A stretch of DNA of 64,000 bases from contig CANRPI010000001.1 of assembly GCA_947632475.1 (NCBI GenBank), positions 17,863 through 81,862 of the forward strand. Direction: 5' to 3'. The notes under the pieces are model-generated. The model did no database searches, was not told the DNA's origin, and saw only the letters and a list, made by a program, of their open reading frames with translations. The DNA is from an uncultured Clostridia bacterium (GTDB lineage: Bacteria > Bacillota > Clostridia > TANB77 > CAG-508). The first letter of the stretch is position 1; each line of letters opens with the position of its first letter. A program made the translations under genes and the position numbers. Positions 21,121 to 23,890 of this stretch are shown piece by piece.

Positions 21121-22144
21121 ATGAAAATCACAGAAAAAAATGGAATATTAATGAAAATAATTGTAATCATTATAATTGGAACTATGTGTATAGGTATTTT
21201 TAGTAACAAAAGTTATGCAGTTAAATATAAAAGTGAAAAAGATTTGTTGGTAGCATTTAAACAATATTTAAATAACAGTTCGGACAAAAAAATTAAAAGT
21301 TTGTCAAAATTTATAAAAAATGGCAAATGGTATTTAAATGATGCATCAGAAACATTATTAAAAGAATGGACTTCAAATTATGAAAAAGTAAAAGAAGGAA
21401 AAGAAGCACCTAGTCCATCAGGAATAGGTTTATGGGCAGAATTTACGAACTGGGCACGGAAGCACAGAGGTAACAGCAAATAGCGCTTATACTGATGCTT
21501 TAGTCAATCTTAAAGCAGCAATAAATAACAAAGTAAACACTAAATTAGGTAAAGATGAAATAGAAGTTTTTGATCCAAACGATCTAGATAAAAAATACAC
21601 AATTAGGAAAAAAGACACAGACGAACAAAAGAAAAAATATAATGAAATCCAAATAAAAGGATATTATGAAAACTTCGGATTAGATGATATAAGCAAAGAA
21701 ATATTGAAAATTTGGATGGATAAATTAAATGAAGATGAAACAAAATATGGTTATATTGTTTCTGCTATGCAAGAAACAATAAATGCTAAAGATGTAATAT
21801 ATTTATCACCACAAAAACAAGAGGATACATCAACTGAAAAAACACTAGATGATGTAATGGGAGATGCAGAAACATTTTTGGATAAAGCAGATGACTTAAA
21901 ATATGATCCACAGAATTTACAATATTTATCAAAAACAATTTACAATATACTATTTACAGCAGGAGTAGTAATAGCAGTAGTAGTAGGAGCAATAATAGGA
22001 ATTAAAATAATGACATCAAGTGCAAGCGAACAAGCAGAATACAAAAAATTATTAATTCCGTATGTAATAGGATGTATAGTTGTATTTGGTGGATTCATGA
22101 TATGGAAAATAGCAGTATATGTAATACAGGGGGTGGCATTATAA
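21121..22144 (+). CDS. VirB2/TrbC-like pilin-type protein 1 (signal peptide + variable domain + C-terminal TM hairpin), frame broken (+1) at in-frame CGG 21457-21459
   Basis: Frame 1 carries the signal peptide (IIVIIIIGTMCIGIFSNKSYA) and ends ...EFTNWA-CGG, with a stop 7 codons later. The +1 frame from 21458 is open for 229 codons. It ends in the hairpin VVIAVVVGAIIGIKIMTSSASEQAEYKKLLIPYVIGCIVVFGGF shared with the three paralogs. Confidence 0.7.
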
Positions 22145-22920
22145 TGAAAAATAAAATAATTATAATATTAGAAAAAACTGTATTATTAATAACAATATTT
22201 TTAATGTTTTTTACAAATACAAATGTATATGCAAAATCAGAAAAAATAGAAGTAGAAGGAAAAGATTCATCAAATACAATTTCAAAAAAAGTAATAGATG
22301 GATTTGAAGCAGGAGTAAAAAAAGGAAAAACAATTACATATGAATTTACAATCAATACAATATCATTAGGAACATATGAATGGTCTGTATTATCACCAAA
22401 AAATTGTGAATATAAAATAAAACCAAATGAAAATAAGTGTGAAGTAACATTTACAGCAACTGGAAATAATGGCGACAAAGCAAGTGCAAGAATAAGATGT
22501 TTGATTAAAAATTTTAATAAAACTATAGCAAACCCTACTATAAATATAGGATTTAATATTTCAAACAAGAAAGCTGCAGCAAGTGAAACAAGCGAAGAAG
22601 TAGATATACAATCTCCAAGTGATGATTGGTTAGGAGAATCAGACACTTTAGATGATTATATAGGTTCAGGAGGAAACTCAAAAAAAATAGAAAAGAAGGC
22701 AGAAAAAGCATTAGGAGTAATTAGAGTAATAGGAATAGTATTATCAGTAGTAATGCTAATGATGATAGGTATAAAATACATGTTAGGAAGTGCGGAACAG
22801 AAAGCTGATTATAAGAAAACATTAATACCATATATAATAGGAGCATTAATAATATTTACAGGCTCAATTTTGCCACAAATAATATATCAATTTGTACAAA
22901 ATATTAAAGACGCATTTTAA
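22144..22920 (+). CDS. VirB2/TrbC-like pilin-type protein 2 with a larger N-terminal ectodomain
   Basis: ATG 22144 overlaps the previous stop (TAATG). Signal peptide LLITIFLMFFTNTNVYA. C-terminal hairpin is VIGIVLSVVMLMMIGIKYMLGSAEQKADYKKTLIPYIIGALIIFTGS. Confidence 0.7.
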   Translation: MKNKIIIILEKTVLLITIFLMFFTNTNVYAKSEKIEVEGKDSSNTISKKVIDGFEAGVKKGKTITYEFTINTISLGTYEWSVLSPKNCEYKIKPNENKCEVTFTATGNNGDKASARIRCLIKNFNKTIANPTINIGFNISNKKAAASETSEEVDIQSPSDDWLGESDTLDDYIGSGGNSKKIEKKAEKALGVIRVIGIVLSVVMLMMIGIKYMLGSAEQKADYKKTLIPYIIGALIIFTGSILPQIIYQFVQNIKDAF

Positions 22921-22992
22921 AATAATAAAAACATTTAATAATTATATAATAATATTAAAAATAAATAAATTTGTTAAATTTTCTAAAAAATA

Positions 22993-23021
22993 TTGAAAAA
23001 AAATACAAATAATTGTATAAT
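22993..23021 (+). promoter_or_regulatory. Internal promoter before pilin-type genes 3 and 4
   Basis: TTGAAA at 22993-22998, a 17 nt spacer, then TATAAT at 23016-23021. Confidence 0.55.
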
Positions 23022-23085
23022 AAAAATAATAATTTGTCTTTAAAATTTATATTTTATAAAAAACAAAAAATAGAAGGAGGAGAAA

Positions 23086-23490
23086 ATGAACAAAAAAATT
23101 CAAAAAATATGCAGCTTTGCATTAATATTTATATTAATAGTTACTATGGCATCAATTGTATTTGCTGCAGATCCATTTACACCAGGTTCAATTGATGAAG
23201 GTAATGTAAATACAAAAGCTTCAAATCAAATAAAAAATGTTGGTAATTCAGTAGTTGGAATATTAAGAACGGTAGGAATAGTATTATCAGTAGTAGTATT
23301 AATAGTATTAGGTATAAAATACATGATGGGAAGTGCAGAAGAAAAATCAGAATACAAGAAAACAATGATACCATATTTAGTAGGAGCAGCATTAATATTT
23401 GCAGCATCAGCATTTGCAGAAGTAATATTCCAATTCTTTGATGGAATAACAACTAAAGATGCAACAAGTAGCATTATGCATATTTTATAG
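23086..23490 (+). CDS. VirB2/TrbC-like pilin-type protein 3
   Basis: 134 aa. RBS is gaaggagg. Signal peptide FALIFILIVTMASIVFA. Hairpin is TVGIVLSVVVLIVLGIKYMMGSAEEKSEYKKTMIPYLVGAALIFAASAF. Confidence 0.75.
   Translation: MNKKIQKICSFALIFILIVTMASIVFAADPFTPGSIDEGNVNTKASNQIKNVGNSVVGILRTVGIVLSVVVLIVLGIKYMMGSAEEKSEYKKTMIPYLVGAALIFAASAFAEVIFQFFDGITTKDATSSIMHIL
23257..23447 (+). repeat. 191-nt near-identical direct repeat, copy 1 (3' part of pilin-type gene 3)
   Basis: Matches 23687-23877 at a 430-nt offset. I saw only two mismatches (23270 c/a and 23440 g/a). Confidence 0.9.
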
Positions 23491-23521
23491 TAATGTAAAA
23501 TAAAAAAAGGAGGAACGTAAA

Positions 23522-23890
23522 ATGAATAAAAATATAAAAAAAATATGTAGTATTGTATTAATGCTAATTTTAATAATGACTTTTTCGGTTAATTCATTTG
23601 CACTTTCACCAAATGATATTCAAGCAGATGCAAATAAAACAGTAACAGGTGGAAAAGAAATAGAAAATGTAGGAAAAGCAATAGTCGGAATATTAAGAAC
23701 AGTAGGAATAGTATTATCAGTAGTAGTATTAATAGTATTAGGTATAAAATACATGATGGGAAGTGCAGAAGAAAAATCAGAATACAAGAAAACAATGATA
23801 CCATATTTAGTAGGAGCAGCATTAATATTTGCAGCATCAGCATTTGCAGAAGTAATATTCCAATTCTTTAATGGAATTTCTGTAAGCTAA
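23522..23890 (+). CDS. VirB2/TrbC-like pilin-type protein 4
   Basis: 122 aa. RBS is aaaggagg. Its C-terminal 63 aa are identical to protein 3 except near the very end, while the N-terminal mature part differs. Confidence 0.75.
   Translation: MNKNIKKICSIVLMLILIMTFSVNSFALSPNDIQADANKTVTGGKEIENVGKAIVGILRTVGIVLSVVVLIVLGIKYMMGSAEEKSEYKKTMIPYLVGAALIFAASAFAEVIFQFFNGISVS
23687..23877 (+). repeat. 191-nt near-identical direct repeat, copy 2
   Basis: See copy 1 at 23257-23447. Confidence 0.9.

Follow-up and report, generated by a model that had tools for sequence, protein, structure and literature searches.

An array of four adjacent T4SS pilin gene variants, one of them broken, near the chromosomal origin in a lineage of uncultured Clostridia

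The 64-kb window (the whole stretch of DNA analysed, to which all coordinates refer) contains four adjacent variants of a small T4SS pilin gene, g1 to g4, one of which is broken; these genes, their expression signals and the downstream T4SS genes lie on the + strand. On balance, we read the region as the pilin-gene array of a vertically inherited, origin-proximal chromosomal T4SS whose subunits would be assembled into a surface filament or stalk. The original prediction of four paralogs with one common layout was borne out in part: the near-identity of two sequence blocks, the layout of g2, g3 and g4 and the expression signals held, but the integrity of g1 and the literal hairpin motif did not.

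The array and its four genes

Three old paralog classes of VirB2/TrbC type would be represented in the window, class 1 by g1, class 2 by g2 and class 3 by g3 together with g4. Identity between the pilin classes in the window is 26-27%. The class-2 gene g2 (22144..22920) encodes a pilin of 258 aa, and short class-3 pilins are encoded by g3 (23086..23490, 134 aa) and by its tandem duplicate g4 (23522..23890, 122 aa). Each of these three products has a signal-peptide-like N-terminal helix, a variable segment (165 aa in g2, 35 aa in g3 and 33 aa in g4) and a conserved two-helix module; in g2 an acidic linker stands between the ectodomain and the hairpin module. The best-conserved stretch of the pilin proteins is the loop GSAEEK.EYKK. 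The motif first written for the module fits no protein when taken literally, being off by one residue, and fits g2, g3 and g4 once one extra residue and I/L tolerance are allowed.

The Pfam gathering cut-offs were 27.9 bits for PF04956 and 26.6 bits for PF18895 (T4SS_pilin). PF04956 was matched above its cut-off by g3 (44.9 bits), g4 (44.8 bits) and g2 (34.6 bits), and g1 was above the cut-off for PF18895 only (29 bits). These matches of g2, g3 and g4, together with the PrgI/VirB3, VirB4 and VirB6-like genes directly downstream, bear out the VirB2/TrbC identity that had been proposed, and the three genes are predicted to encode intact proteins of this family. Weak profile similarity to NF045849 was seen for the hairpin modules of g1, g2 and g3 (E 1e-6 to 8e-4). 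No solved pilin was matched by PDB profile search, and Foldseek against the PDB returned generic helical hairpins only (best E-value 3.3), a plain helical hairpin being an uninformative query.

The AF2 model of g3 (pLDDT 77) places a signal helix at residues 3-27 and the two hairpin helices at 44-81 and 84-133; more than 2900 homologs of this protein were found. The ectodomain of g2 is an orphan, beta-rich segment of about 165 aa with only two homologs found (93-94% identity). In the low-confidence AF2 model of g2, a helix at 2-25 is followed by seven strands and then by helices at 180-213 and 217-257, and the ectodomain weakly resembles a beta-sandwich/cohesin-like fold (E about 0.01). Ectodomains of this size had been called unusual, which is so only relative to characterised pilins; in their own family they are common: 29 of 61 related arrays have them, as do most of the 150 best family representatives (200-558 aa).

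The common layout does not extend to g1, which is split by a frameshift and is no single intact gene. The 5' part of this class-1 long pilin gene (21121..21483) encodes the signal peptide and the start of the ectodomain and reaches a stop after 120 codons. The 3' part (21428..22144) is open in the +1 frame throughout and supplies the remaining ectodomain and the C-terminal hairpin module. Residues 63-96 of the 5' ORF align to residues 51-84 of a related protein (L008), collinear with the downstream frame, of which residues 6-230 align to residues 79-306 of the same protein. The frameshift is present also in an independent contig, L081 (99.9% identity), in which the 5' ORF is likewise called. 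No intact close ortholog of g1 was found among 5.8 billion proteins, and the g1 module is nearest to the first-position genes of other arrays. The 3' part is probably a pseudogene or encodes a truncated product and, because g1 is broken, the pilin classes are presumably not all needed in this strain.

The T4SS cluster downstream of the array

The PrgI/VirB3-like gene (24084..24452; PF12666 29.7 bits, cut-off 27) starts 194 nt past the pilin array. Further on lie the genes for a VirB4-type ATPase (25622..27583), the sole Walker-A protein of the cluster, and for an extended VirB6-like protein of 1055 aa (27627..30794). The latter matches PF18895 (36.1 bits), has a pilin-like domain at residues 183-251 and is weakly matched by the NCBIfam model of the pLS20_p028 family. 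Between PrgI and VirB4 stands p428 (24445..25683), which is membrane-anchored and was found in 80 of 80 loci. There was no direct Pfam hit for p428 and no hhalign match to VirB4; it is TraC-like by orthology, being 48% identical (E 2e-123) to an L086 protein with a precomputed PF26593 TraC-like hit. The stretch from 30810 to 36825 (30810..36825) encodes p340, then a 1191-aa wall hydrolase with Amidase_3, lysozyme and NlpC/P60 domains, and then p440; a domain of about 77 aa is common to p340 and p440 (hhalign probability 94%). All cluster genes except g1 are intact.

The scanned ORFs of the window include none with a relaxase or integrase domain. In none of 80 loci did a check for large Walker-A ORFs besides VirB4 reveal a coupling-ATPase-like ORF within 10 kb of virB4, and no match was found in the plasmid collection. 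With no relaxase, coupling ATPase (VirD4/TcpA) or integrase linked to the T4SS genes over this span, the cluster does not qualify as an MPF_FATA conjugation system carried by an ICE or plasmid. The VirB4 match to the CD1110 family (205.9 bits) lies under the cut-off of 325. A relaxase or coupling protein could still be encoded elsewhere in the genome.

Expression signals

An internal promoter had been placed ahead of the short genes, and a TTGAAA-17-TATAAT site with 11 of 12 matches was indeed found at 22993..23021. The proposed terminator after g4 was recovered as an inverted repeat (23906-23926/23932-23952) followed by a T-run, at the end of the pilin transcription unit (23906..23959, folding at -15.5 kcal/mol). 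Of the related loci, 37 of 71 have a TTG[AC]AA-17-TATAAT site ahead of the last pilin gene, compared with 30 of 243 control windows. After that gene, 74 of 75 loci have a terminator-like hairpin with a T-run, the sequences differing, compared with 8 of 71 controls. These counts agree with the separate expression suggested for the short forms. A further site before g1 (21067..21095) also has 11 of 12 matches, a level at which the number of TTGAAA-17-TATAAT sites is not above chance in this AT-rich region. Class 3 (g3 and g4), with a promoter-like site and a terminator-like hairpin of its own, is the predicted major subunit.

Filament or membrane-resident hairpins

For the filament or stalk that we favour, each product would be exported by Sec and then presumably cut by signal peptidase. 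The mature product would be a helical hairpin embedded in the membrane, its two ends facing outside. A PrgI/VirB4/VirB6 machine would pull the hairpin out and build the structure through the wall, which the three-domain hydrolase would open for it, and the variable N-terminal segment or ectodomain would point outward. Since no relaxase or coupling ATPase lies nearby, we consider self-transfer of a mobile element a less likely use than contact, adhesion or exchange with other cells, the kind of role put forward for the systems of Patescibacteria and for Bartonella Trw.

It is possible, if rather improbable, that the hairpin proteins are instead membrane-resident parts of a T4SS channel or assembly platform and are never extruded, the long forms being hairpin-anchored surface proteins. 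At loci of this type, relatives encode single polypeptides in which one signal peptide is followed by 3 to 5 fused hairpin modules; one of these poly-pilins (P0176) occurs on 6 contigs from at least 3 samples, and a double module is present in L051. The pilin-like domain in the VirB6-like protein matches the relation between VirB2 and VirB6 described in PMC9905601. A membrane-resident role accounts for the fused modules and for this domain no less well than a filament does. Conjugative pili are, moreover, described as absent from monoderm bacteria in PMC9905601 and PMC12857230, which counts against a filament. On the other side, the promoter-like site and terminator-like hairpin of class 3 are conserved, as expected for an abundant structural subunit, and the N-terminal segment changes rapidly and mostly non-synonymously, as expected for an exposed surface. 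Fused modules could also pack side by side in a polymer, because each hairpin would have both ends outside.

Near-identical hairpin modules of g3 and g4

The hairpin-module blocks of g3 (23257..23447) and g4 (23687..23877) differ at 2 of 191 nt (23271 G/A and 23440 G/A), exactly the number first reported. The predicted divergence of the 5' halves was also found, these being 55-76% identical per 15-codon block, and the change from one state to the other is abrupt. A recombination test (maximum chi-square) placed the breakpoint at aligned nt 162, with the observed value reached in 0 of 2000 permutations. Overall identity of g3 and g4 is 72%, rising to 100% in the module.

The original prediction had left gene conversion and recent duplication with diversifying selection side by side. 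Because synonymous divergence (pS) for the pair g3/g4 falls from 0.60 in the signal peptide to 0.024 in the hairpin module, we favour the former, which would keep the two hairpins near-identical. The same type of mosaic is present, independently, in at least six other species (L077, L027, L009, L020, L024 and L062). Between strains, block copy 2 has 1 difference compared with 15 in the adjoining 190 nt, the variable N-terminal part; within g4 the N-terminal segment has 6 non-synonymous and 1 synonymous changes and the module 1 of each. Column entropy in class-3 proteins is 1.88 bits at the mature N-terminus, compared with 0.15 bits for the loop. Such values suggest that the hairpin is strongly constrained and that the exposed N-terminal parts diverge fast.

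An account without gene conversion, in which the 3' identity reflects a very recent tandem duplication and selection diversified the 5' halves, seems to us unlikely. It would suit the single class-3 gene of most related species, the one chimeric gene in the sister contigs L082 and L083 and the mostly non-synonymous N-terminal changes between strains. Selection at the protein level, however, cannot give the difference in pS between signal peptide and module. The boundary between diverged and near-identical parts is sharp, and strain L085 already has both genes with the same mosaic.

Chromosomal setting and conservation

The wider context, a lineage-wide chromosomal T4SS and not a mobile element, was absent from the original prediction. 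The cluster lies about 11 kb from dnaA/oriC (dnaA 8004-9353, array start 21121) and is flanked by dnaA, dnaN, recF, gyrB and then rnpA through parB; the GC-skew minimum falls at 8-10 kb of the window. The gene order mnmG-rsmG-parA-parB-DUF4446-pilins-prgI-p428-virB4-virB6L-p340-hydrolase-p440-dnaJ was found in about 30 species-representative gut Clostridia MAGs. VirB4 identity is 81-89% across the 80 best relatives out of at least 521, and MnmG and ParA are conserved to a similar degree. Genes for SpoIIR, YpeB and a GerM-domain protein are present in the window, and related records are labelled Clostridia/Bacillota.

Among 61 uncut loci, 44 have three pilin genes and 14 have four (58 of 61 with three or four), and the pilin genes of the window are positionally orthologous to the first, middle and last genes of other arrays. 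Arrays of three or four pilin genes in three positional classes are the rule in related loci. Judged from gene content and order, the array does not appear to be on a mobile element and would belong to a vertically inherited chromosomal T4SS found across the lineage.

That the cluster is the decaying remnant of a conjugative element integrated by tRNA-Ser, with an array that has no current function, is very improbable. Two tRNA-Ser genes stand just before the cluster, split AbiE-type genes lie between these and g1, g1 is frameshifted and the cluster has no relaxase or coupling protein, all as a remnant might have. Position and gene order, however, are kept in the 30 or so species representatives, VirB4 is conserved like housekeeping genes, the remaining cluster genes are all intact and the regulatory signals are conserved across species.

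Integrity of the tandem arrangement

In contig L085, obtained from a different sample (97.2% identity), the sequence runs from the g3 tail across the unique junction and on through g4. Two contigs of low coverage (about 2x), L082 and L083, have a single g3N/g4C chimera, which is either a collapsed repeat or the true loss of one 430-nt unit. Although the unit missing from these two contigs would suit an assembly artefact behind the tandem or its 191-nt identity, a concern raised in the original prediction itself, this is the least probable reading of all, because L085 contains the same junction, the unique g3 tail and junction (23448-23521) physically join both genes, and an artefactual duplication would not have left g3 and g4 with different 5' halves.

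Comparison with known systems

The closest described analogue is the origin-proximal, relaxase-less chromosomal T4SS of Patescibacteria (CPR) with VirB2 arrays, such as that of Ca. Southlakia epibionticum ML1 with 6 pilins (Quinonero-Coronel et al. 2025, PMC12102498; review PMC12857230). In the literature searched, this arrangement is described only for the ultra-small Patescibacteria. The two systems are alike in a monoderm host, a place near dnaA/rnpA, no relaxase nearby and conservation across the lineage. They are alike also in PrgI/VirB3, VirB4, VirB6 and wall hydrolases, and in tandem, divergent VirB2-like genes (2-11) that match PF04956 and PF18895. The position next to VirB4 that TrsD holds in Patescibacteria is taken here by p428, a possible equivalent. 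The host here, in contrast, is a spore-forming member of the Bacillota, with SpoIIR, YpeB and GerM-domain genes in the window. Identity within arrays is at most 54% in the CPR systems described, lower than that of g3 and g4, and the parts consulted of PMC12102498 and PMC12857230 make no mention of long-ectodomain or multi-module pilins such as those found here. In epibiotic Patescibacteria the T4SS is essential.

In its tandem, variable pilin genes and in having no coupling protein, the cluster resembles the Trw system of Bartonella (and the multiple VirB2 paralogs of Anaplasma); the role proposed for Trw is in host binding or immune evasion, through surface structures that vary. Trw differs in its diderm proteobacterial hosts with an outer-membrane core complex, its origin from an R388-like plasmid and its short pilins, and VirB5 is also amplified there, whereas none is recognisable here. 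No VirB5 or VirB7/9/10 domains were found among the cluster ORFs, and a variable-pilus T4SS of the Bartonella Trw type was rejected, co-amplified VirB5 and a VirB7/9/10 core both being absent from these ORFs.

VirB2 of the T-pilus, TrbC of RP4 and TraA of F have in common with the window proteins PF04956, virB3/virB4 neighbours, a long signal peptide, two hydrophobic helices and a short charged loop. They are, however, encoded in single copy on plasmids or ICEs with a relaxase and coupling protein, in diderm hosts, and their mature forms are about 70 aa and lack an ectodomain. Lipid-bound pilus structures have been solved for them, whereas for the window proteins neither sequence nor fold comparison gave a match to solved chains.

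Archaeal Ced/Ted import (PMC9905601) and ComB of Helicobacter pylori likewise combine a VirB2-like pilin with VirB6 and a VirB4-type ATPase, lack a relaxase and coupling protein, are chromosomal and serve their own cell, and have a pilin-related VirB6 N-terminus. The sequence relation is at the family level only (NCBIfam CedB/CedD matches of about 18-23 bits, cut-offs 600-700), and no pilin arrays are known there. The hairpin module is also weakly similar by profile to Mbov_0395 of Mycoplasma ICEs (NF045849) and to pLS20_p028 (NF045890), but with scores below the family cut-offs (19-28 bits versus 40), and each of those proteins comes from a lone gene on an ICE or plasmid that has a complete transfer module.

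Implications

The review PMC12857230 (December 2025) describes Gram-positive T4SSs as being without VirB2 pilins, with Patescibacteria the sole exception, and raises the question of whether any monoderm builds a conjugative-type pilus. The same layout, origin-proximal, relaxase-less and with a VirB2 array, now turns up in spore-forming Firmicutes of an ordinary kind that live in the animal gut. At least 80 species representatives have it, and probably hundreds do; the function of such systems may be easier to approach in this lineage.

A bolder and more doubtful proposal is that a large group of uncultured, low-GC, spore-forming gut Clostridia has domesticated an origin-side, conjugation-type T4SS that builds a true VirB2-type pilus across a Gram-positive wall, with a conserved hairpin core homogenised by gene conversion and with interchangeable heads, for contact-dependent exchange or attachment like that of epibiotic Patescibacteria. 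If this were true, the patescibacterial system would be one case of a wider monoderm invention. The pilus would then be modular, the core facing lipid and the heads, among them adhesin-sized ectodomains and fused multi-hairpin subunits, pointing outward. The long-ectodomain pilins, the pilins with 3-5 fused modules and a core that would be maintained by conversion offer testable hypotheses on subunit packing and surface variation, and the system may be informative on the lifestyle of this uncultured group, in particular its contact with other cells or with the host.

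A tandem array of VirB2-type pilin genes

Each of the four plus-strand genes between 21121 and 23890 ends in a related hairpin module of ~75 aa. The original prediction described these genes as four tandem paralogs. Three of them, g2 (22144-22920, 258 aa), g3 (23086-23490, 134 aa) and g4 (23522-23890, 122 aa), are intact, but g1 is split by a frameshift. The 5' piece of g1 (21121-21483) encodes the signal peptide, with 120 codons before a stop, while the +1 frame, open from 21428 to 22144, supplies the rest of the gene including the hairpin. Both pieces align collinearly with a single 336-aa protein of the related contig L008, so g1 is a single ancestral gene with a frameshift. 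The same frameshift is present in L081, an independent contig 99.9% identical to the window. Programmed frameshifting was considered, and an informal look at 21428-21483 showed no canonical slippery site. No intact close ortholog of g1 was found among 5.8 billion proteins, and BLAST of the array against the 64-kb window detected no silent pilin cassettes elsewhere in it. The module motif as originally written does not fit any of the four; with one residue corrected, it fits g2, g3 and g4.

The Pfam family PF04956 (TrbC/VirB2) was matched by g3, g4 and g2 with 44.9, 44.8 and 34.6 bits, respectively (gathering score 27.9). All three also matched PF18895, the only family for which g1 scored above the cut-off. 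Matches to a Mycoplasma ICE pilin-like family in NCBIfam were sub-threshold. The AF2 model of g3 (pLDDT 77) consists of a signal helix followed by a long helical hairpin. The model of g2 is poor (mean pLDDT 52.6); its signal helix is followed by about seven strands, and a disordered acidic linker then leads to the hairpin seen in g3. Given this low confidence, its Foldseek matches to cohesin or Ig-like sandwiches (E about 0.01) are no more than suggestive. When the g3 model was compared with the PDB by Foldseek, only generic helical hairpins were returned (best E-value 3.3), and a PDB profile search with 60 pilins of class 3 (the g3 and g4 type) matched no pilin. Since neither search can tell a pilin hairpin from other helical hairpins, family membership rests on profiles and gene neighbourhood. 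On these grounds the assignment of the products as VirB2-family T4SS subunits is well supported.

Recombination and divergence within the array

Two related contigs at ~2x coverage (L082 and L083) carry a single gene that joins the g3 N-terminus to the g4 C-terminus, with prgI directly after it, and are without exactly one 430-nt unit (window 23448-23877). There are two readings of this chimera, collapse of the repeat (168 nt are identical) and a genuine deletion or copy-number polymorphism produced by unequal recombination. A contig from another sample (L085, 97.2% identical) covers the g3 tail, the unique junction and the whole of g4; the tandem pair thus occurs in two strains or more, and an assembly artefact is excluded.

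The near-identity of the blocks 23257-23447 and 23687-23877 was confirmed, with only two differing positions (23271 and 23440). Upstream of the blocks, g3 and g4 are 55-76% identical per 15-codon block. A maximum chi-square test placed the breakpoint at aligned nt 162, and the observed value was reached in none of 2000 permutations. Between g3 and g4, the proportion of synonymous differences was 0.60 for the codons of the signal peptide; it fell to 0.28 in the mature N-terminal segment (pN 0.41) and to 0.024 in the module. A 25-fold synonymous drop inside one gene pair cannot be produced by selection at the protein level and points to gene conversion, or to recombination confined to the module. 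Gene conversion and recent duplication had both been offered for this pattern, and the synonymous divergence favours conversion over simple duplication. Equally abrupt mosaics between adjacent paralogs were seen in the related loci L077, L027 (three genes), L009, L020, L024 and L062, and mosaics between paralogs involve long as well as short pilins.

Variation between strains was concentrated outside the module. In g4, 15 differences fell in 23484-23675 compared to one in the 191-nt block, and the exposed segment carried 6 non-synonymous and 1 synonymous change, although all of these counts are small. In g2, pN/pS was about 0.6 for the ectodomain (the variable segment after the signal peptide) and 0.13 for the module. 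Strain variation of the g2 ectodomain includes in-frame indels. The window and L081 differ there by a 45-nt in-frame deletion at window 22246-22290, flanked by a 9-nt repeat, and a second strain-level variant (P0121) has an insertion of 3 aa. In an alignment of 60 class-3 proteins, columns of the mature N-terminus had an entropy of 1.88 bits, compared to 0.15 bits for those of the loop.

Expression signals around the class-3 genes

The internal promoter and terminator proposed for g3 and g4 have recognizable counterparts in the window and in related loci. The promoter-like site at 22993-23021 matches at 11 of 12 positions, a level of match that is not above chance in this AT-rich DNA. Across species, 37 of 71 loci have a site matching at 10 or more of 12 positions (usually TTG[AC]AA-17-TATAAT) ahead of their last pilin gene, compared to 30 of 243 random windows. 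The median gap before the last pilin gene is 83 nt, versus 29 nt between earlier genes. A terminator-like hairpin (-15.5 kcal/mol) occupies 23906-23952, and a second promoter-like site lies at 24012-24041. A simple terminator scan, which requires G+C-rich stems, found none; a relaxed search for a hairpin plus T-run, run with a control, detected such elements in 74 of 75 loci 3' of the last pilin gene, their stems differing in sequence, and in 8 of 71 loci 3' of the first pilin gene. From the upstream site and closing hairpin shared across loci, the class-3 genes appear to have a promoter of their own and the array to end before prgI. Rfam returned two tRNAs and nothing else over 19400-24400, so this interval holds no riboswitch or leader.

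An origin-proximal T4SS cluster

The window is the replication-origin region of the chromosome (~25% G+C, GC-skew minimum at 8-10 kb). The minus-strand genes gyrB, recF, dnaN and dnaA extend up to 9353 and are followed on the plus strand by rnpA, yidC, jag, mnmE, mnmG, rsmG, parA, parB and a DUF4446 gene. The rsmG ORF (16322-16810, TTG start, 162 aa) covers only positions 60-174 of the GidB model, and its ortholog on the related contig L089 has 240 aa; a more upstream start or a truncation may explain the shorter window ORF. Two tRNA-Ser genes and split AbiE-type genes lie upstream of the array. The AbiE-type cassette (19937-20884) is situated between tRNA-Ser and the array, with its AbiEii-like gene in two ORFs (20233-20448 and 20552-20884), and is found at the same place in four to five related loci. 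L089 carries a transposase/integrase-core gene (rve domain) and small HTH genes at 5751-6749, between DUF4446 and the pilin array, so the site after parB and tRNA-Ser also accepts insertions. The remaining window genes are housekeeping genes; they include SpoIIR, YpeB and a GerM-domain protein, which identify the host as a spore-forming member of Bacillota.

On its 3' side the array is followed, in order, by PrgI/VirB3, p428, VirB4, a VirB6-like protein, p340, a 1191-aa hydrolase combining amidase, lysozyme and NlpC/P60 domains, and p440. Among the cluster proteins, VirB4 alone carries a Walker-A motif. The window ORFs that were scanned showed no domain of a relaxase, coupling ATPase or integrase, and megablast of 20900-28000 against a plasmid collection gave no match. 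The VirB6-like protein (27627-30794, 1055 aa) itself contains a PF18895 T4SS_pilin domain (residues 183-251, 36.1 bits), and the equivalent ORF in most related loci is also matched by the module HMM.

In all 80 related loci compared, the gene between prgI and virB4 encodes the conserved, membrane-anchored p428 (24445-25683 in the window). It had no match in Pfam or the PDB, no relation to VirB4 by hhalign and only a weak terminase match in PHROG (E 1.5e-4); a 48% identical ortholog has a precomputed match to PF26593 (TraC-like). Because the window VirB4 aligns to the CD1110 family model from position 167 onward only, p428 could be a separate N-terminal partner of VirB4, like TrsD. p340 (30810-31832) and p440 (35503-36825) are without Pfam or NCBIfam match, share a ~77-aa domain (hhalign probability 94%) and may be VirB8-like components.

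Conservation across gut Clostridia

VirB4 has at least 521 relatives in species-representative genomes. The best 80 are 81-89% identical, and all come from gut MAGs of uncultured Clostridia or Bacillota, with human, rabbit, mouse, chicken and goat as hosts. About 30 of these 80 loci retain the complete order mnmG-rsmG-parA-parB-DUF4446-pilins-prgI-p428-virB4-virB6L-p340-hydrolase-p440-dnaJ, and the identity range of VirB4 resembles that of MnmG and ParA. Judged by this conserved order and similarity, the cluster is a vertically inherited core gene set rather than a mobile element. Identities are far lower (22-57%) for the VirB6-like protein, p340, the hydrolase and p440. A second large Walker-A ORF, a possible coupling protein, was found in none of the 80 loci.

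By the module HMM, the 61 uncut loci contain three pilin genes in 44 cases, four in 14 and five in one, and one or more pilins reach a length of 200 aa in 29 of them. The closest modules follow array position, g1 resembling first genes, g2 middle genes, and g3 and g4 last genes, which indicates three old pilin classes with g3/g4 as a duplicated class 3. For the g2 ectodomain, the only homologs are two strain-level variants (93-94% identity), and the class-2 gene is short in other species. Pfam recognized no known domain in the ectodomains of ten long pilins from other loci.

A three-class profile matched 6537 clusters defined at 50% identity, and for 546 the match had E <=1e-30; the best 150 matches were mostly 200-558 aa. 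In the top-scoring proteins, 3, 4 or 5 hairpin modules follow one signal peptide within a single polypeptide. In loci of the pilin-prgI-virB4 type, single ORFs with 5, 4, 3 or 2 fused modules were found in three samples or more (L086 801-2153, also L087 and L088; the proteins P0177 and P0178; L051 1035-1676). Six contigs of this locus type, representing at least three samples, encode the five-module protein P0176 next to a VirB4 78% identical to that of the window; the fused modules are mutually only 33-45% identical. Fused multi-hairpin proteins are topologically possible if each hairpin has both ends outside. These fusions of 3-5 modules are the main support for an alternative in which the hairpin proteins stay in the T4SS channel or assembly platform and are never extruded as a filament; for such polypeptides, placement in a filament or in the membrane is conceivable. 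Extracellular pilus assembly, like the biological role of the system, is something we infer.

Relation to known systems

According to the review PMC12857230, neither VirB2 nor VirB5 has been found in Gram-positive T4SSs other than those of Patescibacteria, where epibiotic growth requires a six-gene pilin array and the T4SS. As described by Quinonero-Coronel et al. (PMC12102498), the patescibacterial T4SS is chromosomal, often near dnaA and rnpA, and comprises TrsD, PrgI, VirB4 and VirB6, with a relaxase being rare; its 441 arrays contain 2-11 VirB2 genes of 25% mean and 54% maximum identity. The window cluster shares with this system the position, the lack of a nearby relaxase, the pilin array and, with p428 as a possible TrsD counterpart, the composition. 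Compared with these descriptions, it differs in residing in spore-forming Clostridia, in the long-ectodomain and fused pilins of its lineage and in its conversion-homogenised modules. Bartonella Trw offers a functional parallel in that it lacks a coupling protein and has amplified, variable pilins with a proposed role in host binding, although Trw is a diderm system in which VirB5 is amplified as well. DNA import by T4SSs without a relaxase is known from archaeal Ced/Ted (PMC9905601) and H. pylori ComB, and the pilin-like domain in the window VirB6-like protein matches the relation reported between CedA and CedA1 and between VirB6 and VirB2 (PMC9905601). We found no published account of such a system in Clostridia in the literature searched, the coverage of which was incomplete.

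Overall, apart from a broken g1 and an inexact motif, the original observation is real, and its interpretation is supported. The main addition is context. As read from gene order and content, the array belongs to a domesticated T4SS that lies close to the replication origin, has no relaxase nearby and is conserved across a large lineage of gut Clostridia.
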